A DNA stretch of 64,000 nt from Clostridia bacterium. GTDB lineage: Bacteria > Bacillota > Clostridia > Christensenellales > Borkfalkiaceae. The translations under genes and the position numbers were made by a program. The stretch lies in the NCBI GenBank assembly GCA_017558105.1, contig JAFYWI010000002.1, forward strand, positions 2,152 through 66,151, read 5' to 3'. Of the stretch, positions 2,855-55,288 are shown one piece after another. The stretch's first letter is position 1, and each line of letters opens with the position of its first letter. Below the pieces are notes generated by a model, which searched no databases, was not told the DNA's origin, and saw nothing but the letters and a program-made list of their open reading frames with translations.

Positions 2855-2857
2855 TCT

Positions 2858-13935: not shown

Positions 13936-13937
13936 AA

Positions 13938-14483: not shown

Positions 14484-14496
14484 AATTTTTTTCTCC

Positions 14497-15237: not shown

Positions 15238-16301
15238 TATTCGTTACCCCCTTCGTTAGCGTTTATAATTGCTTTTAGAACTTGTTCTGGTGAAGGTATC
15301 ATACCACCTGTACGATTACATAAAGTTACAGGTACTTTTCCGTTTACAGAAAGGCGAATATCTTCTATCATTTGCCCCATAGAAAGTTCTACTGATATAA
15401 TTTGTTTAACTTTATTAGAAGCATCTGCAAATGCTTTTTCTGGGAAAGGCCACAAGGTTATTGGGCGAATTAAACCAACCTTTATACCTTGTTTTCTTGC
15501 TTCGTCTATTGCGTTTCTTGCAACTCTTGCAGCAATACCGAATGCTGCAATACAAATTTCGGCATCTTCCATTAGGTATTCTTCATACCTAACTTCGTTT
15601 TGCTTAATAATTTCGTATCTTTCAAAACGTTCTATATTAGTTTTTTCTAATTGGTCTGGCTTTAAGAATAAAGAGTTTACAATATTGTGCTTTCTTCCCA
15701 TTTTAGTGCCAGTAACAGCCCAAGGTTTTTCTACTTCTTCTGCTAATTCAAAATCTAAACTAACAGGTTCCATCATTTGCCCCATAGTTCCGTCTGCTAA
15801 AATCATAGAAGTAACGCGGTACTTATCGGCAAGTTCAAAGCCTTTAACCGTTAGTTCTGCCATTTCTTGAACAGATGCAGGTGCTAAAACTATCATATGA
15901 AAATCGCCGTGTGCGCCACCCTTGGTTGCTTGAAAATAATCGCTTTGAGAAGGTTGAATACCACCAAGCCCTGGGCCACCACGTTGTACGTTTACAATTA
16001 ATGCAGGTAAATCTGCACCAGCCATATAAGAAATACCTTCGCCTTTAAGTGATATTCCTGGGCTAGATGAAGAAGTCATAACCCTTTTACCAGCGGCAGA
16101 TACGCCGTATACCATATTGATTGCGGCAATTTCGCTTTCTGCTTGTAAAAAAGTTCCACCAATCTTTGGCATTCTTTTTGCCATGTATGCTGCTATTTCC
16201 GTTTGTGGAGTTATAGGGTAACCGAAGTAGTGCCTACAACCTGCTTTTATAGCCGCTTCTGCTATTGCTTCGTTTCCTTTCATTAAAACTTTTTCGCTCA
16301 T
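15237..16301 (-). CDS. 2-oxoacid:ferredoxin oxidoreductase, alpha subunit
   Basis: 354 aa with GNEAIAEAAIKAGCRHYFGYPITPQTEI, the typical alpha N-terminus. It overlaps the beta start by 1 nt. Confidence 0.85.
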   Translation of the reverse strand: MSEKVLMKGNEAIAEAAIKAGCRHYFGYPITPQTEIAAYMAKRMPKIGGTFLQAESEIAAINMVYGVSAAGKRVMTSSSSPGISLKGEGISYMAGADLPALIVNVQRGGPGLGGIQPSQSDYFQATKGGAHGDFHMIVLAPASVQEMAELTVKGFELADKYRVTSMILADGTMGQMMEPVSLDFELAEEVEKPWAVTGTKMGRKHNIVNSLFLKPDQLEKTNIERFERYEIIKQNEVRYEEYLMEDAEICIAAFGIAARVARNAIDEARKQGIKVGLIRPITLWPFPEKAFADASNKVKQIISVELSMGQMIEDIRLSVNGKVPVTLCNRTGGMIPSPEQVLKAIINANEGGNE

Positions 16302-16309
16302 AGTAAAAC

Positions 16310-16516
16310 CTACCTTTCTACCTTAATTATGCAGTCTGGACACATAGTAGCGCAAAATGCACAACCTATGCACGCTTCCATTTTTACTGCTTCTACGGGG
16401 TGATGCCCCTTTTTATTTATTTTGTCTGTTGCTAACGCCAATACGCCTTTTGGGCATGCTTCTACGCAAAGCCCACAGCCCTTACACTTATCTACCTGAA
16501 AAGTTAAATTAGCCAT
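16310..16516 (-). CDS. 2-oxoacid:ferredoxin oxidoreductase, delta subunit (2x[4Fe-4S] ferredoxin)
   Basis: 68 aa with CKGCGLCVEACP and CIGCAFCATMCP. Confidence 0.85.
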   Translation of the reverse strand: MANLTFQVDKCKGCGLCVEACPKGVLALATDKINKKGHHPVEAVKMEACIGCAFCATMCPDCIIKVER

Positions 16517-16528
16517 AAATTTTCTCCT

Positions 16529-17191
16529 TTATATTTTCTTTTGCATCACTAACGGATACAAATTACTTACTTTATCTTTTAGTTGTTCAAATAGTTTTTC
16601 ATCTACGGTGTTTAATACCAATGGTAAACCTAATTTTTCCGCTAACTTACTAGCAAAATCTACCGAGTTCAACACGTCTTCTATAGTGGTTTCTTTTCCT
16701 AAATTAGAATTGTTTATTATACCCGTAAACTTAATTTTGCAAGCGTTTTCTATTTCGCTAAAAACTTCTATTGCGCCGTCTATATCGCTAGTGAGTGGCC
16801 TAAATTTATTTATTACGTAAAACATATCGTAATTATTTTCTTGCTTTATTTTAGGTGCAACTCTACCTAGCGCTAAAGCACCACGTTCATCTCCACCCAC
16901 GTCTAATATAGCGCGCATGCTCAAATCGTCGGTTATGCTATAAATTTCTTGTGGCAAAGCCGGAATATCTACGTTAGAGTTTGCGTAAGGAGAACAAATT
17001 AGTTTTATGCCCGCACTCTTTAGCAACTCTTCGCTATCTTTCGTTCTAAAATATGGGTTTACTATGTCGATATCGGCAATAGCAACGTTATTATATAACT
17101 TTTTTAAATCAAAAGCAAGGTTTATAGCAATATTAGTTTTGCCACTTCCGTAATGCCCCGAAACTATTGTTAATCTTTTAAAATCTATCAT
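16529..17191 (-). CDS. MinD/ParA/CooC-like (SIMIBI) P-loop NTPase of unknown role
   Basis: 220 aa with Walker A SGHYGSGKTN and a DVGGD segment, embedded in the operon with gaps of 3 and 12 nt. Confidence 0.6.
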   Translation of the reverse strand: MIDFKRLTIVSGHYGSGKTNIAINLAFDLKKLYNNVAIADIDIVNPYFRTKDSEELLKSAGIKLICSPYANSNVDIPALPQEIYSITDDLSMRAILDVGGDERGALALGRVAPKIKQENNYDMFYVINKFRPLTSDIDGAIEVFSEIENACKIKFTGIINNSNLGKETTIEDVLNSVDFASKLAEKLGLPLVLNTVDEKLFEQLKDKVSNLYPLVMQKKI

Positions 17192-17194
17192 ATT

Positions 17195-19483
17195 TTACAA
17201 TTTATTTCTTTGAATTTTACCACTGGTTGTTTTAGGCAATTCATCTCTAAATACAACAACCCTTGGGTATTTATACGGTGCAGTATGGTCTTTAACGTAT
17301 TTTTGAATTTCTTTCTTTAGTTCTTCTGTAGGAGCAGTACCTTTAGTTAATACAATACTTGCTTTTACTACTTGACCACGAACTTCATCTGGAACGGCAG
17401 AAACACCACATTCTAATACGTAAGGTAATTCCATTATTACACTTTCTATTTCAAAAGGCCCTATTCTGTAGCCAGAAGATTTAATTACGTCGTCTGCCCT
17501 ACCAACGTACCAATAGAAGCCGTCTTCATCTCGCCAAGCAACGTCGCCCGTGTGGTAGAACCCATCGTGCCAAACTTCGTTAGTTTTTTCATCGTCGTTA
17601 TAATAACCACTAAATAATCCACAAGGAATTCTGTCTTTAACGTTAATACAAATTTCGCCAGATTTACCCGTTTCTACTTCGTTGCCGTCGGCATCTAATA
17701 ACCTAACGTCGTAAAGTGGAACAGGTTTACCCATAGAACCTGGTTTGGTATCTGCGCCTTGCAAGTTACCTATAACAAGGGTTGTTTCAGTTTGACCAAA
17801 ACCTTCCATAATGCTTAAGCCCGTTGCCTTATTAAATTGCTTAAATACTTCTAAGTTTAAGGCTTCGCCAGCAGTCGTCATATGTTTTATAGAAGATAAA
17901 TCGTATTGAGAAATATCTTCTTTAACCATCATACGAAGCATTGTTGGTGGAGCGCAGAAAGTAGTAATACCATATTTTGCAAACATAGGTAAAATGTCGC
18001 TCGCGTTAAACTTTTCGAAGTCGTAGGTAAATAGCCCGCCTTCGCATAGCCATTGGCCGTACATTTTTCCCCACATTGCTTTGGCCCAACCGGTATCTGA
18101 AATAGTAAAGTGTATTCCGTTAGGGTCTACCGCGTGCCAATATTTAGCAGTATGGAAATGCCCTAATGGGTATTTGAAACTATGTTTTGCAATTTTTGGA
18201 TAGCCCGTTGTACCACTGGTGAAGAACATAATCATATCGTCGTCGCCACAAGCGGTGTTTTCATCTCTTTCAAAGTGAGTGCTAAATAAAGCACACTCTT
18301 CGTCGAAATTTCTCCAACCTTCTTTTGCTTCGCCAACTATAATTTTGTTTACTAGTTGAGGGCATTTTTTACTTGCAGTTTCTGCGTGCTTATATGCTTC
18401 CCCTTTAGAAGTACAAATAATGGTGCTAACCCCAGCAGAGTTAAACCTATATTCAAAGTCGTGGTCTAAAAGTTGGTTCATAGCAGGTATTGCTACTGCT
18501 CCAATTCTATTTAAGCCAAGTAAAGTGTACCAAAATTGGTAATCTCTACCTAAAACAAGCATAACCTTATCGCCTTTTTTAATACCTAAAGACTTAAAGT
18601 AGTTTGCTGCACGGCAAGAATATTTTTTAATATCGCTAAAAGTAAACCTTCTTTCTTCCTTTTCCCTAGAAATATGTAGTAGGGCAAGTTTATTAGGGTC
18701 TTTTTTAGCAATTTCGTCTATAATATCAAATGCAAAGTTGAATTTTTCTATATTCTTAAAGTCTATAGTTTTTAATACGCCGTTTTCATCTACGGTGGTT
18801 TCTATAAACTTTTTATAAACTCTTTCAACAGAGTCTTTTTTAACCGTTTTAACTTCTAAATTCTTATGCTTCTTTTGTAATTCTGGTATTGCTTCGCCAG
18901 TAGGGTTTAATACTATTGCGTAGAAAATACAATCTTTACCACCAACGGCTATCATTCCGTGTGGGGTTGCAGAGTTATAATAAATACTATCGCCTGCGCT
19001 TAAAACTTCTTCGTGTTCGCCAATTTTTACTTTTAATTGACCTTCTATAACGATATCTAATTCTTGCCCAGAGTGAGAAGTTACTTCTATTTCTTTGTTT
19101 TGCGCTTCTAAACTATATTCACTGCGAACGTAAAGTGGTTCTGCAATACGGTTTTTAAAAGACGGTGCTAAGTTAAAATACGTCATACCGTGTGCTTGTT
19201 CTATTTTTTGACCTTTGCCTGCACGAGTTAAAGTATAAGACCTTAAATTTGGGCTTTGACCTTCTATAATATCGGTAACGTCTACGTTAAAGGCTTGCGC
19301 ACAACGATAAATAAATGCAAAGTTTAAATCTTGCAAACCTTCTTCGCACTTAATATATTCTTCTTCAGAAACACCCGTTCTTTCTGCCATTTCTAAGGTA
19401 GAAAGACTTTCTATTTCACGAAGTTCTTTTATTCTGTTCGCCATTTCCTTGATTTTTAAATCAAGTTCTAAAAAATTACTCAT
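17195..19483 (-). CDS. XRE-HTH + cupin domain fused to an AMP-forming (medium/short-chain) acyl-CoA synthetase
   Basis: ATG 19483 with GGAGAG RBS; the track's longer ORF runs into the T-box terminator. HTH: IKELREIESLSTLEMAERTGVS. Cupin: GDSIYYNSATPHGM. ANL enzyme: FFTSGTTGYPK, GFGQTET, YHTGD, SSGYRIGPFEIES, TTSGKIQR. Confidence 0.85.
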   Translation of the reverse strand: MSNFLELDLKIKEMANRIKELREIESLSTLEMAERTGVSEEEYIKCEEGLQDLNFAFIYRCAQAFNVDVTDIIEGQSPNLRSYTLTRAGKGQKIEQAHGMTYFNLAPSFKNRIAEPLYVRSEYSLEAQNKEIEVTSHSGQELDIVIEGQLKVKIGEHEEVLSAGDSIYYNSATPHGMIAVGGKDCIFYAIVLNPTGEAIPELQKKHKNLEVKTVKKDSVERVYKKFIETTVDENGVLKTIDFKNIEKFNFAFDIIDEIAKKDPNKLALLHISREKEERRFTFSDIKKYSCRAANYFKSLGIKKGDKVMLVLGRDYQFWYTLLGLNRIGAVAIPAMNQLLDHDFEYRFNSAGVSTIICTSKGEAYKHAETASKKCPQLVNKIIVGEAKEGWRNFDEECALFSTHFERDENTACGDDDMIMFFTSGTTGYPKIAKHSFKYPLGHFHTAKYWHAVDPNGIHFTISDTGWAKAMWGKMYGQWLCEGGLFTYDFEKFNASDILPMFAKYGITTFCAPPTMLRMMVKEDISQYDLSSIKHMTTAGEALNLEVFKQFNKATGLSIMEGFGQTETTLVIGNLQGADTKPGSMGKPVPLYDVRLLDADGNEVETGKSGEICINVKDRIPCGLFSGYYNDDEKTNEVWHDGFYHTGDVAWRDEDGFYWYVGRADDVIKSSGYRIGPFEIESVIMELPYVLECGVSAVPDEVRGQVVKASIVLTKGTAPTEELKKEIQKYVKDHTAPYKYPRVVVFRDELPKTTSGKIQRNKL

Positions 19484-19499
19484 ATTTCTCTCCGTTTTG

Positions 19500-19775
19500 G
19501 AACGAAAAAAACCCGCCCCAAAGATTTTATACTTCGAGACGAGCCTACATTTAGCCCGCGGTACCACTCAAATTGCAGTTAAACTGCCACCTCAGAATCT
19601 AACAATTCTTATGCACTAACGTAGCAACTACGGGGAAGTTCTACTAAAAACTAAAAAATTTTTTTCTTCTTCCCAACTCGAAAGTTACAAACTTTAACCT
19701 TTCTGTAACGGCTTTCACCACCCGCCGTCTCTCTGAAACCTACTAAATTAAAGCACCCTTTGTCTTCGTCTTTAT
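19500..19775 (-). promoter_or_regulatory. T-box riboswitch leader (tRNA-sensing antiterminator)
   Basis: On the minus strand: AGAGAG bulge plus distal-loop GGGUGGUGAAAGCC. T-box sequence AAUUUGAGUGGUACCGCGGGC at 19554-19574. Terminator CUCGUCUCGAAG-N8-CUUUGGGGCGGG-U7 at 19505-19543. Confidence 0.85.
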
Positions 19776-43106: not shown

Positions 43107-43958
43107 ATGAAATACGATTTTGTTATTAACCACAACTTTGTTAGAAACCCCTTAGAGTTAGAAAAATTAAACCTTTTACAACTTGGCAGAGTGTTTTGTA
43201 ACGAAACTTTTTATTGCGATAACCACTACCACGTTAATTGGTACGAACTAACTATTGTTACCGATGGCGAAGGTGTAATTTACGCTAACGATATTCCTAC
43301 CAAAATTAAAAAGGGTGATATTTATTTTTCTACCACCTTTGAAAACCATAAAATAGAAACTTCTAAAGAAAAACCCTTAAAATACGACTTTTTTTCTTTC
43401 TACCCTACCGATAAAAAGTTGGCAGAGCAATTACAAAAGTTTTCTAATGCCAACAACATTACTTCAAGGGTATTTTCTAGCGAAAGAATAACCTTTTTGG
43501 TCAGCACGGCTCTGCACGAATTAACAAGGGAAAAAGACGGGTTTACCCTAATCACCATAAACGCAATTTGTTTGCAAATTTTGGTATATTTAATTAGGGC
43601 TCTAAACAAGGTTAAAACTGAAAGCACTAACCCAAGCGACAAGGAAGTTTTGTGTTTTCAAATTATGGAATATATTACGAGCAATATATATAATATAGGA
43701 AAAATAAGCGAAATTTCTAATAATTTTGGGTATTCTTATAATCACTTATCTTACTTATTTAAGAAAACTACGGGGAACACTATTATAGAATTTTATAACC
43801 AAACAAGGCTAAATTTAAGCAAAGCCTTAATAGAAGAAGAAAACCTTTCTTTAAGCAAAATTGCTAAAAAACTTAACTTTTCTACCGTTTATTCGTTTAG
43901 CAATTCCTTTAAAAAACACTTTGGCGTTTCGCCACTAACCTACAAAAAAAGTTTGTAA
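43107..43958 (+). CDS. AraC-family transcriptional regulator
   Basis: Cupin-like N-terminus and C-terminal HTH region ISEISNNFGYSYNHLSYLFKK...FSTVYSFSNSFKKHFGVSP. Divergent from the oxidoreductase operon. Confidence 0.8.
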   Translation: MKYDFVINHNFVRNPLELEKLNLLQLGRVFCNETFYCDNHYHVNWYELTIVTDGEGVIYANDIPTKIKKGDIYFSTTFENHKIETSKEKPLKYDFFSFYPTDKKLAEQLQKFSNANNITSRVFSSERITFLVSTALHELTREKDGFTLITINAICLQILVYLIRALNKVKTESTNPSDKEVLCFQIMEYITSNIYNIGKISEISNNFGYSYNHLSYLFKKTTGNTIIEFYNQTRLNLSKALIEEENLSLSKIAKKLNFSTVYSFSNSFKKHFGVSPLTYKKSL

Positions 43959-44083
43959 AATAAAACGAAAAGGATGTTAAAAATAACGTGAACCCAATTA
44001 AAAGCGCCAAAACAATTTGGTGCTTTTAATTTAATAAGAATACGAGCAGTATTTTATTAATACAATGTTATAAGGGGATTAAA

Positions 44084-44608
44084 ATGAAAAAGAATATTTG
44101 GTTATGGCAATTAGGTGGTATAACTTTCGTAAGCGTATTAGGTAGTATTTTGCATTTTTTATACGGGTGGACTAATAACAACAAAATTGTGGCGTTGTTT
44201 TCTAGCGTTAACGAAAGCACTTGGGAACATATGAAATTGCTATTTTTCCCTGCACTAATTTATGCAATTTTTCAAAGTTTTTTTAGTAAAAAAGAGTTTA
44301 ATTCTTTTTGGTGCGTTAAGTTAATAGGTACTTCTTTAGGGCTAATTTTAATACCAACTTTTTTCTATACTTCAACCGGAATTTTTGGCACTTTACCTGG
44401 GTGGCTTAACGTTATAATTTTCTTTGTTTCGGTTGTTTTAGGGTTTTATTACGAAACTTTTTTGTTTAATAAAAACTATAAAACTAACTGCCAAAAAATT
44501 TGCATAATTTTATTTATTATAATTGCAATTTTGTTTTTTATTTTTACATATTTTCCACCTAAAATTCCACTTTTTTTAGACCCCGTTTTTAACATTTACG
44601 GAGCATAA
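44084..44608 (+). CDS. Small polytopic membrane protein of unknown function (DUF6512-like)
   Basis: 174 aa with 5 TM helices and an NESTWEHMKLLFFP motif. Confidence 0.5.
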   Translation: MKKNIWLWQLGGITFVSVLGSILHFLYGWTNNNKIVALFSSVNESTWEHMKLLFFPALIYAIFQSFFSKKEFNSFWCVKLIGTSLGLILIPTFFYTSTGIFGTLPGWLNVIIFFVSVVLGFYYETFLFNKNYKTNCQKICIILFIIIAILFFIFTYFPPKIPLFLDPVFNIYGA

Positions 44609-44653
44609 ACAACAACCAGTTATTTACATTTTAATCTTTTATTAAAATAGAAC

Positions 44654-44686
44654 AAGGCTTAAGACTTCACCTTAAGCCTTTTAGTT
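44654..44686 (+). terminator. Rho-independent terminator
   Basis: aaggcttaag-N7-cttaagcctt followed by a T-rich tract. Confidence 0.65.
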
Positions 44687-44733
44687 TGTTTAATATTTTT
44701 TCAAAACTAACCTTTTATCTTTTTTAACAAATT

Positions 44734-44779
44734 GTGTTAATAATTAACACTTTTTTGTTAAAATGTTAAAAATTAACAT
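44734..44779. promoter_or_regulatory. Two related palindromic operator-like sites (TGTTAA-N3-TTAACA)
   Basis: gtgttaat-a-attaacac at 44734-44750 is a perfect 8-1-8 palindrome. atgttaa-aaa-ttaacat at 44763-44779 is a perfect 7-3-7 palindrome. Their centres are 29 nt apart. Confidence 0.5.
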
Positions 44780-44819
44780 AAAATTTTAATATAAACACGC
44801 TAAAATGTTTTGTAATAAT

Positions 44820-44848
44820 TTGATTATTTTGTCTTTTTGTGCTAAAAT
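44820..44848 (+). promoter_or_regulatory. Candidate sigma-A promoter of the hdr/flx/frd operon
   Basis: TTGATT, 17 nt, TAAAAT, with a TGc extended -10. Confidence 0.35.
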
Positions 44849-44973
44849 ATTTTTGCAAGTATATATAATGATTAATTATAGCCAACTTGCTTTTAACAAA
44901 AAAAGAAAAAACTTAGGCACAATTAATACTTTTTTCTTAAAAGATAAATAGTTTAAACAAAAGGACAGACATT

Positions 44974-45762
44974 ATGAAAATGAGTTATTTTCCTGGTTGC
45001 ACCTTAAAAAACAAAGCAACCGACTTAGACGTGTATGCAAGGCTTTCAGCAGAAGCGCTTGACATTATGCTTGAAGAAATTGAAAATTGGCAATGTTGCG
45101 GTGGCATGTTCACCAGTTCTAACGATGAAGTTGCAACCAAACTATCTTCCGTAAGAGTTTTAAACTCTGCATTTAAGAAAGGGCAAGATTTGGTTACCGT
45201 TTGTTCTGCTTGCCACAACGTTGTTAAACAAACTAATAACGCTATGCAAACCGATAGTGAATTCGCTTCTAAGGTTAACAACTATATGGGCGAAGATAAA
45301 TACGAAGGTCAAACCAAAATTTACCATTACTTAGAAATGCTACGCGACGTTGTTGGTTTTGAAAAAATTAAAGAAAAAGTAGTTAACCCACTAAAAGGCA
45401 AAAAAATTGGTGCTTACTACGGGTGCTTATTACTTCGCCCAAGCAAAGTAATGGCTATGGATAACCCAGAAAACCCAACCATTTTAGAAGACTTTATTCG
45501 TGCAATTGGGGCAGAACCAGTTATTTATGCTCAACGCAACGAATGTTGTGGTGGCTACGTTACTTTAGAAAGTCCTAACAGCGCTAAAAAACAAAGCAAC
45601 CGAGTTTTAGAAAATGCTAAGGCAAACGGCGCAGAATTAATTATTACTGCCTGCCCACTTTGTTTATATAACTTAAAAAAGAGTGGCGCTAATATTCCTG
45701 TAGTTTACTTTACGGAATTACTTGCCGAAGCCTTAGGATTAAAGGAGCAAACAAATGACTAA
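44974..45762 (+). CDS. hdrB: Heterodisulfide reductase subunit B-like protein (two CCG domains)
   Basis: 262 aa with FPGC...WQCCGG...CSACHN and YYGC...NECCGGY...CPLCLYN. Confidence 0.85.
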   Translation: MKMSYFPGCTLKNKATDLDVYARLSAEALDIMLEEIENWQCCGGMFTSSNDEVATKLSSVRVLNSAFKKGQDLVTVCSACHNVVKQTNNAMQTDSEFASKVNNYMGEDKYEGQTKIYHYLEMLRDVVGFEKIKEKVVNPLKGKKIGAYYGCLLLRPSKVMAMDNPENPTILEDFIRAIGAEPVIYAQRNECCGGYVTLESPNSAKKQSNRVLENAKANGAELIITACPLCLYNLKKSGANIPVVYFTELLAEALGLKEQTND

Positions 45763-46141
45763 TAAATATTCAGTAGAAGAAATTATTAAAAGAAGTGGTG
45801 CAAACCCACTTAAATGTATGAAATGTGGTAAATGCTCTGCAACCTGCCCTGCTTACGATGAAATGGAATATCACCCACACCAATTCGTTAGCATGATTGC
45901 AGACGGAGATATTGAAGCATTAGTTAAATCTGATTCAATTTACAGATGCCTTTCTTGTTTTGCTTGCGTTGAAAGATGCCCAAGGGGTGTTGAACCTGCA
46001 AAACTTATTGAAGCGTTAAAGTTAGAAGTTATTCGCAAGAAAGGGCAAAATTATCTTACACCAAACGATATCCCTAATATGCTTAACGAAGACCTTCCTC
46101 AACAAGCAATAGTTAGCGCATTTAGAAAATACACGAAATAG
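45755..46141 (+). CDS. hdrC: Heterodisulfide reductase subunit C-like 2x[4Fe-4S] protein
   Basis: 128 aa with CMKCGKCSATCP and CLSCFACVERCP. It overlaps hdrB by 8 nt. Confidence 0.8.
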   Translation: MTNKYSVEEIIKRSGANPLKCMKCGKCSATCPAYDEMEYHPHQFVSMIADGDIEALVKSDSIYRCLSCFACVERCPRGVEPAKLIEALKLEVIRKKGQNYLTPNDIPNMLNEDLPQQAIVSAFRKYTK

Positions 46142-46156
46142 GAGAAATTAATTAAG

Positions 46157-48151
46157 ATGCAAAGAATAGGTGTTTTTGTTTGCTGGTGTGGTAGTAATAT
46201 TGCCGGCACGGTAGACGTAAAAGCAGTTGCCGAAGCCTTAAAATTTGAGCCAGGCGTTGTTCATTCTACCGATTACCAATATATGTGTTCTCAAGCAGGA
46301 CAAAATTTAATTAAAGACGCTATTAAAGAACATAACCTAACGGGTATTGTAGTATGTTCTTGTTCACCAAGAATGCACGAAGCAACTTTCCGTAAAACAG
46401 CCCAAAGTGCTGGCATTAACCCTTATATGGTAGAAATTGCCAATATTAGGGAACAATGTTCTTGGGTACATAAAGATATGGCTATTGGTACTGAAAAGGC
46501 TATTATTTTAGGTAAGGCTGCAGTAGCAAAAGTTAACTTAAACGCACCGTTAACCCCAGGTGAATCTCCTGTAACTAAACGTGCATTAGTTATTGGTGGT
46601 GGTATTGCAGGTATTCAAACTGCATTAGATATTGCAGACGCTGGTTTTGAAGTAGATATAGTTGAAAAGAAGCCAACCATTGGTGGTAAAATGGCTCAAT
46701 TAGACAAAACCTTCCCTACCCTAGACTGCGCTGCTTGTATTCTTACACCAAAAATGGTAGACGTTGCTCAACACGAAAAAATTAGAATATTCTCTTATAG
46801 CGAAGTTGAAAGCGTTAAAGGTTTCGTTGGTAATTTTAACGTTACCATTAAAAAACACGCTAGGTACGTCAAAGAAGATTTATGTACCGGTTGTGGTGCG
46901 TGTGTAGAAAAATGCCCACAAAAGAAAGTTGCTAACGAATTCAACTTAAATATGGATAATAGGCACGCAATATATATTCCTTTTGCACAAGCAGTTCCTA
47001 AGGTTGCTACTATAGACCCAAGTGCTTGTACTATGTTAAAAACGGGTAAATGTGGCGTTTGCTCTAAAATTTGTGCTGCAGGCGCTATAGATTACACCCA
47101 AAAAGATGAATATATAGAAGAAAAATACGGCGCAATAGTTGTTGCTACCGGTTTTAACCCTATTAGTTTAGAAAAATTTGACGAATATGCTTACAGCCAA
47201 TCTAAAGACGTTATTACTTCACTTGAATTTGAAAGGTTAACTAACGCGGCAGGCCCAACTGCTGGTAAACTTCTTCGCCCATCAGACGGAAAACACCCAC
47301 ACAAAATAGTTTTCGTTCAATGCGTAGGCTCAAGATGTTCTGCCGGCGCAGAAAAGGGCAAAGAATACTGCTCTAAAATTTGCTGTATGTACACTGCTAA
47401 ACACGCAATGTTAGTTAGAGATAAATACCCAGATACTGAAGTTTACGTTTTCTATATAGACGTTAGAACTCCTGGTAAAAACTTTGATGAATTCTACCGC
47501 CGTGCCGTAGAAGAATATGGCGTTCATTACATTAAAGGTATGGTTGGTAAAGTTACCCCAGAAGGCGAAGTGTTAAAAGTACAAGGCTCTGACCTAATTA
47601 ACAATAAACAAATTAATATAGATGCAGATTTAGTTGTTTTAGCCGCTGCTATTGAACCAGATAAGAGCGCAAGGCCACTTGCAACTAAACTTACTGCTAG
47701 TATGGATACTAACGACTTCTTTACAGAAGCCCACCCTAAACTACGCCCTGTTGAAAGCCCAACTGCAGGTGTATTCCTTTCTGGTGCTTGCCAAGGCCCT
47801 AAAGATATTCCTGAAACGGTTTCTCAAGCAGGTGCTGCCGCAGCCAAAGTAATTGGCTTGTTGGCTAAAGATAAACTTCTTGGTAACCCTTGCGTTGCAA
47901 GGAGCAACGAACTTTTATGTAACGGTTGTTCTAACTGCGAAAAAGTTTGTCCTTACGGCGCTATTACTTATATTGATAAAGACTTTAGAATGCCAGACAG
48001 AACTACTAGAACAAGGCGCATAGCACAAGTAAACCCTGCTGTTTGCCAAGGTTGTGGTGCTTGTACCGTTACTTGCCCTTCTGGCGCTATGGACCTTAAC
48101 GGTTTCACTAACGGACAAATTATGGCGGAGGTAGACGCAATATGCAAATAA
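46157..48151 (+). CDS. hdrA: Heterodisulfide reductase subunit A-like FAD/Fe-S flavoprotein
   Basis: 664 aa with GVFVCWCGSNI, ALVIGGGIAGIQTALDIADAG, FPTLDCAACILTPKM and several CxxCxxCxxxCP clusters. Confidence 0.9.
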   Translation: MQRIGVFVCWCGSNIAGTVDVKAVAEALKFEPGVVHSTDYQYMCSQAGQNLIKDAIKEHNLTGIVVCSCSPRMHEATFRKTAQSAGINPYMVEIANIREQCSWVHKDMAIGTEKAIILGKAAVAKVNLNAPLTPGESPVTKRALVIGGGIAGIQTALDIADAGFEVDIVEKKPTIGGKMAQLDKTFPTLDCAACILTPKMVDVAQHEKIRIFSYSEVESVKGFVGNFNVTIKKHARYVKEDLCTGCGACVEKCPQKKVANEFNLNMDNRHAIYIPFAQAVPKVATIDPSACTMLKTGKCGVCSKICAAGAIDYTQKDEYIEEKYGAIVVATGFNPISLEKFDEYAYSQSKDVITSLEFERLTNAAGPTAGKLLRPSDGKHPHKIVFVQCVGSRCSAGAEKGKEYCSKICCMYTAKHAMLVRDKYPDTEVYVFYIDVRTPGKNFDEFYRRAVEEYGVHYIKGMVGKVTPEGEVLKVQGSDLINNKQINIDADLVVLAAAIEPDKSARPLATKLTASMDTNDFFTEAHPKLRPVESPTAGVFLSGACQGPKDIPETVSQAGAAAAKVIGLLAKDKLLGNPCVARSNELLCNGCSNCEKVCPYGAITYIDKDFRMPDRTTRTRRIAQVNPAVCQGCGACTVTCPSGAMDLNGFTNGQIMAEVDAICK

Positions 48152-48576
48152 CAGAACATAAACCTTTAATAGTGGCATTTTGTTGCAACTGGTGTTCTTA
48201 CGCTGGTGCAGACCTTGCTGGAAATAACAGACTTAATTACCCTGCCGACGTAAAGATTATTAGAGTTCCTTGCTCTTGTAGGGTTAACCCAATGTTCGTT
48301 CTTCGTGCCTTCCAAAAAGGTGCTGACGGCGTTATTATTTGTGGTTGCCACCCAGGAGATTGCCACTACACTTCTGGTAACTACTACGCAAGACGTCGTA
48401 TGGCAATGCTATTTTCTATGTTAGATTACCTTGGCATTGAAAGAGAACGCACCCGTGTTGAGTGGGTTTCTGCTGCAGAAGGTGCTAAGTTTTCTGCTAC
48501 AATGAACGATTTTGTTGAAAAAGTTACTAAACTTGGCAAAAACAAAAGATTGGAGGATTTAAGATGCAAAAAATAA
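48142..48576 (+). CDS. mvhD: MvhD/FlxD-like iron-sulfur subunit
   Basis: 144 aa with IVAFCCNWCSYAGADLAG...VPCSCRV...GCHPGDCHY. Confidence 0.85.
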   Translation: MQITEHKPLIVAFCCNWCSYAGADLAGNNRLNYPADVKIIRVPCSCRVNPMFVLRAFQKGADGVIICGCHPGDCHYTSGNYYARRRMAMLFSMLDYLGIERERTRVEWVSAAEGAKFSATMNDFVEKVTKLGKNKRLEDLRCKK

Positions 48577-49547
48577 CGACTGATGCTTTAGTTCAAAAAG
48601 CCGTTGAACTACTTAATAACAATACGGTATCTTACGTTCTCGGTTGGAAAAAGGGTGAATTCGATTACGATATTACCCCTTACGTATTCAAAGATGAAAA
48701 AACCTTAAAAGAAGAATTTATTTATAGCGACTTTTGTGGTGTAAACCTTTCTAAATACTTAGTTGCTAAAACTAAAGAATTAGCTGGCAAAATTTTAGTT
48801 TTCTTAAAGCCTTGCGACACTTATAGCTTTAACCAACTTTTAACTGAACATAGGTTTAATAGAGAAAAAGTTTACGCAATAGGTATTCCTTGCGAAGGTA
48901 TGCTAGATATAGATAAAATTAAACTTAATTTAGAAGGTATTAGTTCTATTGTAGAAACAAAAGAAGGCGTTAAAGTTAACACTTTAGACGATAAAACTAT
49001 TGAACTAGAAAAACAAGCAATTTTATTAGAAAAATGTAAAAATTGCAAAAGCAAAAAACACTATGCTTACGATGAACTTTTGGGCGAAGAAGGCGACGTT
49101 TTAGATAACAACCGTTTCGATGAAGTTGCAAAGTTAGAAAGTATGACGGCAGAAGAACGTTTTGAATTTTGGCAAAGCCAACTTTCTAAATGTATTAGGT
49201 GCAACGCTTGTAGAGATGCTTGCCCTGCTTGTACTTGCGAAAAATGTGTTTTCGACAACCCTAATTCTGGCATAGAAAACAAATCACCTGCAAATAGTTT
49301 TGAAGAAAAACTATTCCATATTATTCGTGCTTTCCACGTTGCAGGTCGTTGTACCGATTGTGGCGAATGTTCACGTGCTTGCCCACAAAACATTCCACTA
49401 CACTTACTAAACAGAAAATTCATTAAAGACATAAACGAACACTACGGCGAATTCCAAGCAGGCTTAGAAGTTGGTCAAAGAGGCCCACTAGTTAGTTATA
49501 CTACGGAAGACGTTGAACCTTCGGACGTTTTTAATAAAGGAGAATAA
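48564..49547 (+). CDS. FlxC/HydB/AsrA-like 4Fe-4S polyferredoxin subunit
   Basis: 327 aa with CIRCNACRDACPACTC and CTDCGECSRACP. It overlaps mvhD by 13 nt. Confidence 0.65.
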   Translation: MQKITTDALVQKAVELLNNNTVSYVLGWKKGEFDYDITPYVFKDEKTLKEEFIYSDFCGVNLSKYLVAKTKELAGKILVFLKPCDTYSFNQLLTEHRFNREKVYAIGIPCEGMLDIDKIKLNLEGISSIVETKEGVKVNTLDDKTIELEKQAILLEKCKNCKSKKHYAYDELLGEEGDVLDNNRFDEVAKLESMTAEERFEFWQSQLSKCIRCNACRDACPACTCEKCVFDNPNSGIENKSPANSFEEKLFHIIRAFHVAGRCTDCGECSRACPQNIPLHLLNRKFIKDINEHYGEFQAGLEVGQRGPLVSYTTEDVEPSDVFNKGE

Positions 49548-49548
49548 A

Positions 49549-50577
49549 ATGCGTAAATGTTCTTTAAGTGCAATTAATTCTATTTTTGAAGAAATTGCTA
49601 AAAATACTATGCTTTTTTTACCCGTAGATAATAAAGACGGCAAAGCAGAATATAAAAAATGGCAAGAAGGCTTTCTTTTAAGCGAAAAACTTAACACCGT
49701 TAAAAGCCCTAAAGAATTTCTCTTTCCACAAACGGAAAATTTAATGGAATTTAAAACGAGTGGTAAAAACATTGAAATTATAGACACAAGAACTGCTAAA
49801 GAAGATTTTGTTGTGTTTGGCGTTCGTGCTTGCGATGCAAAGGCTTTTGATATTTTAGATAAAGTTTTCTTAACCGAACCAAGAGATAGTTATTACGCTT
49901 CTTGTCGTGAACACGGCACTATAATTACCTTAGCGTGCAATAAGCCTAGCGAAACTTGTTTCTGTTCTGCCTTCGGTATTGACCCTGCTAACCCTATGGG
50001 CGACGTTTCTGCTTGGAAAACCGAAAATGAAATGTTTTTTGAAGCAAATACCGAAAAAGGCGAAAAATTTATTGAATTAATTAAAAATTTAACGGAAAAA
50101 ACTGATAATAAAGAAGTTAAAAAACAAAAAGAAAAAATTTCTAATATAATGAAAAAACTTCCGTTGGCTAATTTAAGCACAGAAAAATTTGGTGGTGGCA
50201 AAACCAAAGAATTATTCGACGCACCAGAATGGGCAGAACTTTCTTCTACTTGTTTAGGTTGTGGAACTTGTACTTTCGTATGCCCTACCTGCCAATGCTA
50301 CGATATTAAAGATTTTAACACCGGCAAAGGCGTAATTCGTTTTAGGTGTTGGGATTCTTGTATGTATTCTAACTTTACACTTATGGCACACGGCAACAAC
50401 AGAAATTCTCAAAAAGAACGTTTCCGCCAACGTTTTATGCACAAGTTAGTTTACTTCCCAGAAAATAACGACGGAACTTTTGGTTGCGTTGGTTGTGGCA
50501 GGTGCTTATCTAGATGTCCTATTTCTATGAACATCGTTAAAGTAATGAAAAAATTAGGGGGAAAAACAAATGACTAA
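49549..50577 (+). CDS. FlxB/HydB/AsrA-like 4Fe-4S subunit
   Basis: ATG 49549 follows RBS aaaggaga. CLGCGTCTFVCPTCQCYD and CVGCGRCLSRCP are typical of the sulfhydrogenase-beta/AsrA family. Confidence 0.7.
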   Translation: MRKCSLSAINSIFEEIAKNTMLFLPVDNKDGKAEYKKWQEGFLLSEKLNTVKSPKEFLFPQTENLMEFKTSGKNIEIIDTRTAKEDFVVFGVRACDAKAFDILDKVFLTEPRDSYYASCREHGTIITLACNKPSETCFCSAFGIDPANPMGDVSAWKTENEMFFEANTEKGEKFIELIKNLTEKTDNKEVKKQKEKISNIMKKLPLANLSTEKFGGGKTKELFDAPEWAELSSTCLGCGTCTFVCPTCQCYDIKDFNTGKGVIRFRCWDSCMYSNFTLMAHGNNRNSQKERFRQRFMHKLVYFPENNDGTFGCVGCGRCLSRCPISMNIVKVMKKLGGKTND

Positions 50578-51400
50578 CGTAGATACTTTAATTCCTAAAG
50601 TTGGTGTTATTACCGACGTACGCATAGACACCCCAGATATTAAAACTTTTAGAGTTGTTACTCCTGATGGCAAAAAGGCTTTCGACCACAGACCTGGTCA
50701 ATGCGCTATGCTTTCTATTCCTGGTGTTGGCGAAGCAATGTTTTCTATAACTTCTTCACCTACTAATACGGAATATATGGAATTCTCTATTAAAAAATGT
50801 GGTTGTGTTACAGAGTGGTTGCACTCTGCAGAAGTAGGTCAACAAATTACTATAAGAGGGCCTTACGGCAAACCTTTCCCTGTAGACGACGAATTTGCAG
50901 GCAAAAACCTACTATTTATTGCAGGTGGCGTTGGGCTTGCTCCACTACGTTCTGTAATTAACTACTGCCGTCATTACCGCGATAGATATGGTAAAATAGA
51001 TATCGTTTACGGCTCTAGAAGTAAAGACGACTTGTTAGACTATAAAGAAATAATAGACGAATGGGCTACCGACGAAGGCATTAACGTTCACTTAACTATA
51101 GACAATGCTCAAGAAGGTTGGGACGGGCACGTTGGTTTCGTACCTAACTACGTTAAAGAACTTGGCTTTGATACAGATAAAACTGCCGTTCTTTGCGGGC
51201 CACCTATTATGATTAAATTTACCCTAGACGGGCTTTACGCGTTAGGGTTTGAAAAAACACAAATTTACACCACGTTAGAACTTCGTATGAAATGCGGTGT
51301 TGGTAAATGTGGCAGATGTAACGTAGGCGCAAAATACGTTTGCAAAGACGGACCTGTTTTCCGTTTTGACGAACTAAACGAACTACCTACAGAATATTAA
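50570..51400 (+). CDS. FlxA/HydG/AsrB/PyrK-like FAD + NAD(P)H-binding [2Fe-2S] oxidoreductase subunit
   Basis: 276 aa with RPGQCAML, MFSITSSP, LLFIAGGVGLAPLRS and a C-terminal CGVGKCGRCNVG cluster. Confidence 0.75.
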   Translation: MTNVDTLIPKVGVITDVRIDTPDIKTFRVVTPDGKKAFDHRPGQCAMLSIPGVGEAMFSITSSPTNTEYMEFSIKKCGCVTEWLHSAEVGQQITIRGPYGKPFPVDDEFAGKNLLFIAGGVGLAPLRSVINYCRHYRDRYGKIDIVYGSRSKDDLLDYKEIIDEWATDEGINVHLTIDNAQEGWDGHVGFVPNYVKELGFDTDKTAVLCGPPIMIKFTLDGLYALGFEKTQIYTTLELRMKCGVGKCGRCNVGAKYVCKDGPVFRFDELNELPTEY

Positions 51401-51412
51401 AAGGAGAGAACT

Positions 51413-52087
51413 ATGGAAAAAATGGTAAACGTTTTCCTTTTTGGAAAAAAGTATGAAGTTCCTGCAAGTCTTACTATTATGACTGCTATGGAATATGCTG
51501 GCTACCAACTTGTTAGGGGTTGTGGTTGCCGTAACGGCTTTTGTGGCGCTTGCGCTACCATATACCGTATTAAAGGTGATAAAGAATTAAAGGCTTGTCT
51601 TGCTTGCCAAACTCAAGTAGAAGACAATATGTACGTTGCTACCTTGCCTTTCTTCCCTTTAGTTAAACAAGTTTACGATATTGAAAAGGTTACACCTTCT
51701 CAACAAATTATGATGCAACTTTACCCAGAAATTTATGCTTGTATTGGTTGTAATGCTTGTACGAAAAGTTGTACTCAAGACCTTAACGTAATGCAATACA
51801 TTGCTTACGCACAAAGAGGTGACCACGAAAAATGCGCAGAAGAATCTTTCGACTGCGTTATGTGTGGCGTTTGTTCTTCAAGATGCCCTGCTGGGATTTC
51901 TCACCCACAAGTTGCAGAACTTTCTAGGCGTATTTACGGCAAGTATATTGCCCCAGAAACTCAACACTTATTAGATAGGGTTAAAGAAATTGAAGACGGC
52001 AAATACGTTGAACTTATTGAAACACTTATGAATAAGCCAATAGAAGAACTTAAAGAACTTTATAACAATAGAGAGATTGAAAAGTAA
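51413..52087 (+). CDS. SdhB/FrdB-like iron-sulfur subunit ([2Fe-2S] plus two CxxCxxCxxxC(P) clusters)
   Basis: 224 aa. CRNGFCGACATIY...C resembles the SdhB 2Fe-2S motif. CIGCNACTKSC and CVMCGVCSSRCP follow. Confidence 0.7.
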   Translation: MEKMVNVFLFGKKYEVPASLTIMTAMEYAGYQLVRGCGCRNGFCGACATIYRIKGDKELKACLACQTQVEDNMYVATLPFFPLVKQVYDIEKVTPSQQIMMQLYPEIYACIGCNACTKSCTQDLNVMQYIAYAQRGDHEKCAEESFDCVMCGVCSSRCPAGISHPQVAELSRRIYGKYIAPETQHLLDRVKEIEDGKYVELIETLMNKPIEELKELYNNREIEK

Positions 52088-52099
52088 GGGAGATTAATA

Positions 52100-53710
52100 A
52101 TGTATAAATATACTCAAGAACAACTAGATTCAATGAAAAAAGTTGAAGCGACTAGGCAAGAAAGGTTAAACAATCTTTTTGCTAGAATGAGCGCTGATGA
52201 AAAACAAAAAGTATTAAAAGAAAATCACCCAGACTATATTGATTCTGCTTACGAAGAATTAAAAGTAGGACCTAATAAGGGTGGCAAAGTTCTACACGAA
52301 CTTGCAGACCTTTTACAAGGTAGGTCAAGAGTTTTAGATATGGATTTAGACCTAACTAAACCAGATTACGACGTAGACGTTTTAGTTATTGGTGGTGGTG
52401 GCTCTGGTTCTTGCGCTGCTATTGAAGCAGATAACGCAGGCGCTAAGGTTATGATGGTTACTAAACTTCGTATCGGTGACGCTAACACTATGATGGCTGA
52501 AGGTGGTATTCAAGCGGCAGACAAACCTAACGACTCACCTGCTATTCACTACCTAGATGCTTTTGGTGGTGGCCACTTCGCAGCTAAGCCAGAACTATTA
52601 TATAAACTTGTTAACGACGCTCCAGATTGTATTAAATGGCTAAACGAACTTGGCGTTATGTTCGATAAAGACAAAGACGGCACTATGATTACTACCCACG
52701 GTGGTGGTACTTCAAGAAAACGTATGCACGCTTGTAAAGACTATTCTGGTGCAGAAATTATGAGAACTTTACGTGATGAAGTTCTAAATAGGGGTATTCC
52801 TGTTGTGGATTTTACTTCTGCTATTGAACTTATTAAAGACGTTGAAGGTAAAGTTGCAGGTGCAGTACTTCTTAATATGGAAACCAAAGAAATTAAAATT
52901 GCAAGGGCTAAAACGGTTGTTATTGCTACAGGTGGTGCTGGCAGACTTCATTACCAAGGCTTCCCTACTTCTAACCACTACGGCGCAACGGCAGACGGCT
53001 TGGTTTTAGGTTATAGGGCTGGTGCTAAACTTCTTTATGCCGATACGCTTCAATATCACCCAACCGGTGTTGCAGAACCTACACAAATTTTTGGTGCACT
53101 AGTTACCGAAAAAGTTCGTTCACTTGGCGCTCAATTAGTTAATAAAGATGGTGAAGCGTTCGTTTATTCTTTAGAAACGCGTGACGTTACTGCTTCTTCT
53201 ATTATTAGAGAATGCAGACAAAGAGATAACGGCATTAAAACTACCGATGGCGAAGGCGTATGGCTAGATACACCTATGATTGAAATGATTGGTGGTGAAG
53301 GCACTATTGAAAAACGTATTCCTGCAATGCTACGTATGTTTGGTAAATACGGCATTGATATTAGAAAAGAACCTATTTTAGTTTACCCTACCCTACACTA
53401 CCAAAACGGTGGTTTAGATATTTCTGCAGACGGTATGACTACCAACGTTCCTAACCTATTCGTTGCTGGCGAAGCCGTTGGGGGAATTCACGGCAGAAAT
53501 AGGCTAATGGGCAACTCTTTATTAGATATTATAGTTTTCGGTAGAAACGCTGGTAAGAGTGTTGGTAAAGTTTATAAAAACGTTGAACTAAAAGAATTAA
53601 CTTTAGACCACGTTAAAGCCTTTGATAAAGAACTTAAAGATGCTGGCTTAAACCCAACTAAACTTTCACCACAATTATTACCTAACTACACCATACAAAA
53701 AGATATTTAA
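52100..53710 (+). CDS. Fumarate reductase / succinate dehydrogenase / L-aspartate-oxidase-family flavoprotein (soluble, FrdA-like)
   Basis: 536 aa with DVLVIGGGGSGS, MMAEGG, LQYHPTG, ETRD, LHYQNGG and HGRNRLMGNSLLD. These are the family's FAD and dicarboxylate-site motifs. Confidence 0.8.
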   Translation: MYKYTQEQLDSMKKVEATRQERLNNLFARMSADEKQKVLKENHPDYIDSAYEELKVGPNKGGKVLHELADLLQGRSRVLDMDLDLTKPDYDVDVLVIGGGGSGSCAAIEADNAGAKVMMVTKLRIGDANTMMAEGGIQAADKPNDSPAIHYLDAFGGGHFAAKPELLYKLVNDAPDCIKWLNELGVMFDKDKDGTMITTHGGGTSRKRMHACKDYSGAEIMRTLRDEVLNRGIPVVDFTSAIELIKDVEGKVAGAVLLNMETKEIKIARAKTVVIATGGAGRLHYQGFPTSNHYGATADGLVLGYRAGAKLLYADTLQYHPTGVAEPTQIFGALVTEKVRSLGAQLVNKDGEAFVYSLETRDVTASSIIRECRQRDNGIKTTDGEGVWLDTPMIEMIGGEGTIEKRIPAMLRMFGKYGIDIRKEPILVYPTLHYQNGGLDISADGMTTNVPNLFVAGEAVGGIHGRNRLMGNSLLDIIVFGRNAGKSVGKVYKNVELKELTLDHVKAFDKELKDAGLNPTKLSPQLLPNYTIQKDI

Positions 53711-55250: not shown

Positions 55251-55288
55251 AAAAGGAGTATTAGTTTTTCTAATACTCCTTTATTTTT
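55251..55288. terminator. Bidirectional terminator
   Basis: ggagtattag-ttttt-ctaatactcc flanked by A and T runs. Confidence 0.75.

Follow-up and report, generated by a model that had tools for sequence, protein, structure and literature searches.

A stretch of 64,000 nucleotides (nt) of clostridial DNA, called the window below, carries an operon that we read as encoding a soluble, quinone-independent, Flx-Hdr-linked electron-bifurcating NADH:fumarate oxidoreductase together with an exporter for its product. We give this reading a probability of about 0.6, with bifurcation and complex formation as its predicted parts. A first-pass annotation of the same DNA had described nine coupled genes (44974-53710) and proposed that they specify a novel cytoplasmic complex in which NAD(P)H oxidation is bifurcated between fumarate and ferredoxin. 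The soluble NAD(P)H-to-fumarate part of that proposal is now strongly supported by the presence of a fumarase gene (fumC) in 55/55 related loci, by the constant gene order, by the linkage of Hdr and fumarate reductase genes in a rearranged locus, by the catalytic residues of the flavoprotein and by its structural match to FrdA. The claim of novelty did not survive, as the same operon and the same hypothesis are in print for Pseudoclostridium thermosuccinogenes (PMC7282089). The operon of the window belongs to a kind that has already been published and is biochemically uncharacterised.

Composition of the operon

The genes of the unit and the terminators that bracket it are the following; FrdB' and FrdA' denote the Fe-S protein and the flavoprotein of the fumarate-reductase-like pair, and FAD is flavin adenine dinucleotide.

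44654-44680, both strands: strong bidirectional intrinsic terminator, stem of 10-12 bp that includes 4 GC pairs, T-run on each strand; closes the upstream DUF6512 gene and forms the 5' boundary of the unit
44974-45762, + strand: hdrB, 262 residues, CCG-domain subunit, both non-cubane [4Fe-4S] motifs complete; Pfam CCG 76 bits over two segments
45755-46141, + strand: hdrC, 128 residues, 2x[4Fe-4S] ferredoxin-like; Fer4_8/Fer4_17; HdrC models 57-60 bits
46157-48151, + strand: hdrA, 664 residues, FAD and multiple [4Fe-4S] clusters; HdrA2 model 785 bits
48142-48576, + strand: flxD/mvhD, 144 residues, [2Fe-2S] connector; Pfam FlpD 189 bits, VhuD 139 bits
48564-49547, + strand: flxC, 327 residues, Fe-S protein with two CxxCxxCxxxCP motifs; generic Fer4 dicluster matches only
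49549-50577, + strand: flxB, 342 residues, HydB/ShyB/AsrA-like Fe-S protein; Fer4_22 106 bits, ShyB 168, HydB 159, AsrA 152
50570-51400, + strand: flxA, 276 residues; FAD_binding_6, NAD_binding_1 and DHODB_Fe-S_bind; PRK08345 227 bits, HydG 198, AsrB 196
51413-52087, + strand: frdB', 224 residues, SdhB-type [2Fe-2S] motif and two CxxCxxCxxxC motifs (2x[4Fe-4S]); Fer2_4/Fer2_3 and Fer4 matches
52100-53710, + strand: frdA', 536 residues, non-covalent FAD and a full fumarate-reductase catalytic set; FAD_binding_2 232 bits
53800-55227, + strand: AspT/YidE/YbjL (AAEx) transporter, 475 residues, about 10-12 transmembrane segments; Asp-Al_Ex 201 bits, YidE_YbjL_dupl 143.5 bits (cutoff 71.95)
55252-55282, both strands: strong bidirectional intrinsic terminator, stem of 13 bp that includes 4 GC pairs, T-run on each strand; closes the ten-gene unit

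The coordinates and junctions given earlier for the nine open reading frames (ORFs) were reproduced exactly. Of their eight junctions, four are overlaps (8, 10, 13 and 8 nt) and four are gaps (15, 1, 12 and 12 nt). Every start codon is preceded at 6-10 nt by a Shine-Dalgarno sequence (aggag/ggagg), and this spacing suggests translational coupling of the nine genes. The operon described before is thus real, but it is larger by one gene: the AspT/YidE/YbjL transporter gene also lies inside, the 89-nt gap that separates it from frdA' holds no terminator-like structure, and hdrB-hdrC-hdrA-flxD-flxC-flxB-flxA-frdB'-frdA'-transporter forms one ten-gene operon bracketed by terminators.

Profile searches and comparisons with sequences of known structure upheld the earlier domain assignments apart from minor corrections. 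The seven-subunit Flx-Hdr set is present, although its order is not an exact reversal of flxABCD-hdrABC as had been stated, since hdrB precedes hdrC. Both CCG motifs attributed to HdrB are complete: its ten Cys (positions 9, 41, 42, 77, 80, 151, 191, 192, 227 and 230) make up two C-x(n)-CC-x(n)-CxxC motifs, and every one of them is aligned in comparisons with methanogen HdrB structures (117-132 bits). Among NCBIfam models, those of HdrB (155 bits) and SdhE (149 bits) score almost alike, both under cutoff. HdrC carries two CxxCxxCxxxCP motifs. HdrA aligns end to end (residues 3-661, 670 bits) with the bifurcating HdrA of Methanothermococcus (5odc_A), with all cluster motifs and the Cys pair beside the FAD aligned and both ferredoxin domains kept, and is the presumed bifurcating flavoprotein. 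On the Flx side, FlxA is of the HydG/AsrB/PyrK type with a C-terminal [2Fe-2S] site, and is the presumed entry point of NAD(P)H. The start of flxB at ATG 49549 has a Shine-Dalgarno sequence and a spacing as in its homologues. Of the two proteins described before as HydB/AsrA-like polyferredoxins, FlxB scores as such, but the similarity of FlxC to FlxB is confined to the C-terminal dicluster region; the position of flxC is nevertheless constant in all related loci.

The likeness of FrdB' to SdhB/FrdB-type Fe-S proteins holds at a distance, with low scores: 36 bits for TfrB (model positions 19-102 only), 30 for dhsB and 26 for SdhB. Domain profiles and a motif check found no CCG domain in it, unlike in the C-terminus of TfrB. 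The best NCBIfam model for FrdA' is TfrA (NF004900), which is matched over positions 6-425 of 546 with 336 bits against a cutoff of 718, and FrdA' stays under every other curated equivalog cutoff as well: SdhA/FrdA 270/567, NadB 268/453 (TIGR00551) and flavocytochrome c 204/285. Its catalytic residues are nonetheless those of a fumarate reductase. H320, T336/E337, R340, R361, H433 and R468 align with H242, T254/E255, R286, H354 and R399 of Escherichia coli SdhA, a set that binds and protonates the dicarboxylate and in which R361 occupies the position of the proton shuttle. Across 50 aligned sequences with a mean column identity of 35%, these residues vary little or not at all. The His that binds FAD covalently in SdhA (His45, in 'SHT') is replaced by Asn128 in FrdA' ('GDANTMMAEGG'), and the Asn, numbered N129 there, is invariant among close homologues. 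Loss of the covalent-FAD His is typical of reductase-only enzymes, as in the H44 variants of FrdA.

A structural model of FrdA' was built with AlphaFold2 from the 50-sequence alignment, distant representatives included, and reached a mean predicted local distance difference test score (pLDDT) of 94.9 and a predicted template modelling (TM) score of 0.93; an earlier model from a shallow alignment of sequences with 81-93% identity had a pLDDT of only 66 and was set aside. The top structural match of the model is E. coli FrdA (1kf6_A, E 2.9e-36, TM 0.72), followed by SdhA, NadB, flavocytochrome c3 and urocanate reductase. The helical domain at the C-terminus of FrdA and TfrA is absent from FrdA', which carries an N-terminal extension of about 90 residues (residues 1-90, window 52100-52370) with the motif HPDY...G(P/A)NKG(D/E)...ELAxLL, modelled as helices within residues 6-42 and two short strands. 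Neither this extension nor the C-terminal tail matches any Pfam family, and FrdA, SdhA, NadB and TfrA hold no counterpart of the extension, which may help to dock the Fe-S subunit or Hdr. As had been noted before, a membrane anchor is missing: no transmembrane segment is predicted in any of the nine products. A membrane-bound complex II was rejected for want of an anchor gene conserved in 80 related loci, a hydrophobic segment and the covalent-FAD His.

Conservation, modular relatives and candidate Rex control

A scan of one genome per species returned at least 597 loci of this kind, and the gene-neighbourhood counts below come from the best 80 of them (L001-L080), all from uncultured gut or rumen Clostridia (Christensenellaceae, 'Ca. 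Scatosoma', Oscillospiraceae and Acutalibacteraceae). The FrdA' family is large and little varied: among clusters formed at 90% identity, all of the top 120 share 81-93% of their residues with the query and measure 533-538 residues. The order, strand and spacing of the nine genes are identical in 55/55 loci with sufficient flanking DNA, so that the co-conservation of the frd-like genes with hdr and flx, on which the first-pass annotation had made its hypothesis depend, is borne out. A class II fumarate hydratase gene, fumC (TIGR00979, 714 bits, cutoff 665), stands immediately 5' of hdrB in all 55 loci that extend at least 1.5 kb upstream of it. It is preceded in 43 of 54 loci by a gene of the Ldh/Mdh family whose product bears the motif 'GVGRKPGQSR', where an Arg at the substrate-discriminating position presumably marks a malate rather than a lactate dehydrogenase. 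A rex gene lies inside 13 related loci. No membrane anchor gene is conserved in the 80 loci, nor is any gene for a DsrC-like or other thiol carrier among their ORFs of at least 100 residues. Antisense ORF clusters that overlap the operon in relatives (12, 15, 17, 18, 22 and 23) were taken as mechanical artefacts of ORF calling.

The AAEx gene follows the flavoprotein gene directly in about 49 of 64 related loci, and the protein is probably a succinate (dicarboxylate) exporter or exchanger. In 11 of the 64 its place is taken by a membrane ORF of about 105 residues (for instance L025:11628-11945, and ten other loci), which has a weak PQ-loop match (E 0.011); the two occur together in none. Judged by size, this ORF corresponds to CDQ83_RS03315 of P. 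thermosuccinogenes, and its product may represent a new, small type of dicarboxylate exporter. No homologue of it is present in the window. The context of fumarase, malate dehydrogenase and exporter is that of the reductive branch leading from oxaloacetate to exported succinate, and it makes a much stronger case for fumarate as acceptor than could be drawn from the window by itself. The window itself is the only locus without fumC directly 5' of hdrB, against 55/55 among the best 80 of at least 597, and is a variant of the operon without fumC at its head.

Beyond these close relatives, an exhaustive search among 50%-identity representatives gave about ten full-length clusters with the N-terminal extension of FrdA', and their contexts indicate that the Fe-S/flavoprotein pair is modular. 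In one of the two nearest clades, a 10-kb contig (L082:811-9771) carries a four-subunit 2-oxoacid:ferredoxin oxidoreductase followed by hdrA-mvhD-hdrC-hdrB-frdB'-frdA', with a flavoprotein 55% identical to that of the window and with no flx genes on the contig. Going by these gene arrangements, the Hdr-Frd linkage is kept in the two nearest clades despite the rearranged gene order, and it is the donor module that varies. Elsewhere a 47%-identical pair and a NuoF-like subunit (Complex1_51K, SLBB, NADH_4Fe-4S) are encoded by three genes whose starts overlap (L083-L085:9366-12891), a unit that looks like a simpler soluble NADH:fumarate reductase, seemingly undescribed. The genomes of these loci look proteobacterial, with genes for cytochrome c, UbiA and DsrE nearby. 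The pair stands alone in L086, and the flavoprotein alone in L087-L089. The gene for the Fe-S protein adjoins that for the flavoprotein in the operon loci, in L082 and in L083-L086, and the two are joined in a natural 727-residue fusion, P0122 (L081:5250-7433), of which the Fe-S part is 39% identical over all 224 residues and the flavoprotein part 56%. No hdr or flx gene lies upstream of the fusion on its contig. The small membrane ORF that replaces the AAEx gene in other loci follows the fused gene too (L081:7449-7682).

The promoter region of the operon holds one further element:

44755-44772, + strand: Rex-operator-like site TTGTTAAAATGTTAAAAA, one mismatch from TTGTTAANNNNTTAACAA, 202 nt 5' of the hdrB ATG

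We take TTGTTAANNNNTTAACAA to be the clostridial Rex box consensus. The site is the sole match with at most one mismatch in the window, where 0.075 would be expected. In the relatives, all six matches of this quality fall 34-102 nt 5' of mdh or fumC, and 10 of 51 operon promoters hold a site with up to three mismatches, compared with 1.9% of control windows, an enrichment of about tenfold. Only these analyses, restricted to single mismatches or to promoters, carry weight here. The site is a probable Rex operator; no rex gene lies in the window. The enrichment of Rex boxes and the presence of rex in 13 loci fit an NADH-consuming function, and Rex-type control, for which these data are only suggestive, would fit induction of the operon upon NADH accumulation. 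A perfect 17-nt palindrome, GTGTTAATAATTAACAC, is found at 44734-44750, 4 nt 5' of the Rex-like box; its half-sites TGTTAA/TTAACA are separated by a spacer of 3 nt rather than 4, and it could be a second operator or the site of another regulator.

Proposed electron path and alternative readings

In the mechanism that we propose, NAD(P)H would be oxidised at the FAD of FlxA, and the electrons would pass from its [2Fe-2S] cluster, by way of the clusters in the Fe-S proteins FlxB and FlxC and of the [2Fe-2S] cluster in FlxD (MvhD), to the FAD of HdrA. There the pair would be split, one electron travelling uphill through the ferredoxin domains of HdrA to ferredoxin, and the other downhill through HdrC, the two non-cubane clusters of HdrB and the [2Fe-2S] and 2x[4Fe-4S] clusters of FrdB' to the non-covalent FAD of FrdA'. 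Fumarate would be reduced to succinate at this flavin, and the succinate exported by the AAEx transporter. The net reaction would be 2 NADH + Fd(ox) + fumarate -> 2 NAD+ + Fd(red, 2 e-) + succinate, where Fd is ferredoxin. At standard potentials of -320 mV for NADH, about +30 mV for fumarate/succinate and about -450 mV for ferredoxin, such a reaction yields about -40 kJ/mol. Reduced ferredoxin could then feed Rnf or a hydrogenase, so that the reduction of fumarate would conserve energy without quinones. The direct transfer from HdrB to FrdB', as well as the nucleotide and ferredoxin partners, are what we infer.

Several lines of evidence speak for this bifurcating NADH:fumarate oxidoreductase: no subunit or cofactor motif is missing or damaged, the Hdr-Frd linkage does not depend on gene order, as seen in L082, and the Fe-S protein and the flavoprotein occur as a natural fusion in P0122. 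Several observations weigh against it. HdrB retains a complete Cys set of the disulfide-reductase type, compatible with a thiol/disulfide intermediate; the Fe-S/flavoprotein pair is also found with a NuoF-like partner or alone, so Hdr is not required in principle; and neither fumC nor mdh lies beside the module or anywhere in the 64 kb of the window. The Rex site is one mismatch off the consensus, and matches with up to two mismatches show no enrichment across the window (4 found, 3.58 expected). No enzymological, structural, biochemical or genetic study of any member was found in the literature searched; PMC12174285 and PMC9044749 contributed nothing on this point.

The complete Cys set of HdrB gives rise to the alternative of two enzymes joined by a soluble thiol, in which Flx-Hdr would reduce ferredoxin and an unknown disulfide at HdrB and the Fe-S/flavoprotein pair would act as a thiol:fumarate reductase, as TfrAB does with coenzyme M (CoM-SH) and coenzyme B (CoB-SH). 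TfrA being the best curated model for the flavoprotein (336 bits) is in keeping with this idea, as are the alignment of both CCG Cys sets with methanogen HdrB and the wording 'ferredoxin (and thiols)' in PMC7282089. The thiol-oxidising site of TfrB is, however, its C-terminal CCG domain, which the Fe-S subunit of the window does not have, and HdrB is the single CCG protein of the whole locus. Synthesis of CoM or CoB is not known from Clostridia. The absence of a CCG domain from FrdB', together with that single CCG protein and the lack of a conserved carrier gene (80 loci, ORFs of at least 100 residues), argues for direct wiring over a thiol shuttle, and we regard the shuttle as unlikely. The thiol-free form of the bifurcating oxidoreductase, which is itself held tentatively and at somewhat less than even odds, would have the non-cubane clusters of HdrB act as a relay into a docked SdhB-like subunit of a soluble bifurcating NADH:ferredoxin/fumarate oxidoreductase, rather than reduce a disulfide. 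In combination with Rnf it would provide an energy-conserving 'fumarate respiration' to hundreds of quinone-free gut Clostridia, and it would reveal the long-sought physiological acceptor of Flx-Hdr in Firmicutes. As a corollary, the N-extended Fe-S/flavoprotein pair would be a portable terminal-reductase cassette that evolution has joined to donor modules of the NuoF-like, Hdr-only or Hdr-Flx kind.

The existence of the NuoF-linked unit in L083-L085, where a simple NADH-linked version of the enzyme probably operates, raises the question of whether Flx and Hdr could be a mere Fe-S wire in a non-bifurcating soluble NADH:fumarate reductase that leaves ferredoxin unreduced. We consider this quite improbable, given a full-length HdrA that matches a bifurcating HdrA of proven structure with 670 bits and keeps both ferredoxin domains and all cluster ligands, and given that seven extra cofactor-rich subunits held at 60-90% identity in hundreds of species are hard to explain for a reaction releasing about 68 kJ/mol. 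More doubtful still is operation in reverse, where succinate and reduced ferredoxin would together reduce NAD+ (confurcation) and succinate oxidation would feed fumC and mdh. Flavin-based bifurcating enzymes are reversible in principle and fumC and mdh are bidirectional, but the FAD of FrdA' is non-covalent, with Asn for the FAD-linking His, and non-covalent FAD in Sdh/Frd enzymes abolishes succinate oxidation. Rex-type control likewise suits the consumption of NADH, and P. thermosuccinogenes excretes succinate and induces its operon at NADH excess (PMC7282089). The flavoprotein might also act on another substrate, either as an L-aspartate oxidase (NadB), which the first-pass annotation had named as a possible refutation, or as a reductase of another enoate, for example urocanate or of the acrylate type. 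In its favour, NadB models reach 216-268 bits, FrdA' can be aligned well with NadB structures, the family of the downstream transporter includes aspartate:alanine exchangers, and the window has no fumC. Against this, all NadB models remain sub-cutoff, the position of NadB Glu121 is His in FrdA', NadB works without an Fe-S partner while here one is always adjacent or fused, and fumC adjoins the operon in 55/55 relatives; FrdA' thus has not the look of an aspartate oxidase, and that reading was rejected. A urocanate-type reductase was discarded as well, its structural match (TM 0.64) being weaker than that of FrdA (0.72), and we give very little credence to any such change of substrate. Fumarate as the acceptor of a bifurcating Flx-Hdr complex is the reading that we retain.

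Related systems, surroundings and implications

The closest precedent is the 'succinate operon' of P. thermosuccinogenes (Koendjbiharie et al. 2020, PMC7282089), which consists of fumC, seven Flx-Hdr genes (CDQ83_RS03360-03330), two fumarate reductase genes (CDQ83_RS03325-03320) and a hypothetical protein regarded as potentially a succinic acid transporter (CDQ83_RS03315). Its genes are highly expressed and co-regulated about 3.5-4-fold in a host that excretes succinate, and induction under NADH excess was inferred there physiologically. The operon and the bifurcation idea, from NADH to ferredoxin and fumarate, were described by Koendjbiharie and van Kranenburg, and the paper cites a preprint of 2019 (10.20944/preprints201912.0288.v1). 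Gene coordinates taken from its supplement allow a comparison of layout: number and order of the genes agree with the window, as do, very nearly, sizes (about 261 and 108 residues, five genes over 5.35 kb, then 225 and 534 residues, vs 262, 128, 5.24 kb, 224 and 536 in the window), the gap of about 12 nt between the two reductase genes and the proposed function. The P. thermosuccinogenes operon differs in having fumC at its head and an ORF of about 83 residues where the window has the AAEx transporter, and the host of the window differs in being an uncultured gut Clostridium of low GC content.

The seven-subunit set itself, FlxA, FlxB, FlxC, FlxD (MvhD-like), HdrA, HdrB and HdrC, is that of FlxABCD-HdrABC of Desulfovibrio vulgaris (Ramos et al. 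2015, as cited in PMC7282089 and PMC6315080). The order in the window is hdrBCA-flxDCBA, and in place of DsrC, the acceptor proposed in D. vulgaris, the operon encodes a dedicated Fe-S/flavoprotein reductase. To our knowledge, bifurcation by the D. vulgaris complex has not been demonstrated biochemically either. HdrA, HdrB, HdrC and MvhD are full-length homologues, with cofactor ligands conserved, of those in the methanogen MvhADG-HdrABC and Fdh-Hdr complexes (5ODC, 7BKB, 8RVU); unlike these, the window has Flx (NADH) as donor instead of a hydrogenase or formate dehydrogenase, and a protein-bound reductase is presumed in place of the acceptor CoM-S-S-CoB.

On the reductase side, the Methanothermobacter TfrAB resembles the window pair in being soluble, with non-covalent FAD and no membrane anchor, and HdrC, HdrB and FrdB' each match a different segment of TfrB. 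It is unlike the pair in that FrdA' falls well under the TfrA cutoff, does not cover model positions 426-546 and has the additional N-terminus of about 90 residues, and in that FrdB' carries no fused CCG domain. FrdABCD (quinol:fumarate reductase) shares the flavoprotein fold and the catalytic residues, but relative to FrdABCD and SdhABCD the window lacks an anchor subunit, a quinone site and covalent FAD, and its flavoprotein is truncated at the C-terminus. Type E SdhABEF and methylmenaquinol:fumarate reductase, where the CCG protein SdhE touches an SdhB-type subunit, offer a precedent for a contact between HdrB and FrdB'. Hdr modules linked to soluble Tfr-type fumarate reductases have also been reported in Thioflavicoccus and tubeworm symbionts, sulfur-oxidising organisms in which tfrAB is interspersed with flxABCD-hdrABC and korABCD (PMC6315080), and in Cloacimonadota as an Mvh-Hdr-TFR-OGOR-FH cluster (PMC8542988). 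L082 resembles these clusters; they were read as parts of the reductive tricarboxylic acid cycle of autotrophs, unlike the window, whose context is that of fermentative succinate formation.

The flanks of the ten-gene unit appear functionally unrelated to it, with AraC and DUF6512 on the 5' side and nucleotidyltransferases and a GHMP kinase on the opposite strand on the 3' side. The region from 43107 to 44973 comprises the AraC-family gene, the DUF6512 membrane protein gene, the terminator and an AT-rich promoter region of about 290 nt where relatives carry fumC/mdh; neither AraC nor DUF6512 is kept upstream of the operon in related loci. The GC content of the operon (0.37-0.39) exceeds that of its flanks (0.32-0.34), and the unit may have been relocated or acquired without fumC/mdh. 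The remaining window is ordinary chromosome with, among others, gyrAB, a 2-oxoacid:ferredoxin oxidoreductase, phosphonate biosynthesis genes and nagA. The phosphonate set (637-4867, minus strand) encodes a 669-residue phosphoenolpyruvate mutase fused to nucleotidyltransferase/cytidylyltransferase domains, a phosphonate-type Fe-dependent alcohol dehydrogenase and a phosphonopyruvate decarboxylase, and suggests a phosphonate-decorated cell-surface polymer. A second group (12874-19567, minus strand) includes a branched-chain aminotransferase, a three-subunit VorB-type 2-oxoacid:ferredoxin oxidoreductase and a 790-residue MbcS-like acyl-CoA synthetase with an N-terminal extension of about 250 residues, which suggests a ferredoxin-linked pathway of branched-chain amino acids or fatty acids. 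Such a pathway, if true, would be a further source of reduced ferredoxin in this organism.

To the published single-organism hypothesis the present analysis adds breadth, the invariant association with fumC and the frequent one with mdh, the modularity of the reductase pair (fusion, NuoF-like and Hdr-only partners), a probable Rex operator and, in the window, a variant without fumC. With at least 597 loci, mostly in uncultured gut and rumen Clostridia, the hypothesis extends over a wide ecological range. Being compact and soluble, and accompanied in most relatives by its own fumarase, malate dehydrogenase and exporter, the operon is a practical target for heterologous expression, for structural work and for the engineering of anaerobic succinate production; how an HdrB-type subunit passes electrons to a protein partner is of particular structural interest. 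If the mechanism is true, the widespread Flx-Hdr of Firmicutes would gain a defined physiological acceptor, fumarate reduction in many strictly fermentative Clostridia would be an energy-conserving, ferredoxin-reducing step rather than a mere electron sink, and estimates of the ATP yield of succinate formation in gut and rumen communities would change.

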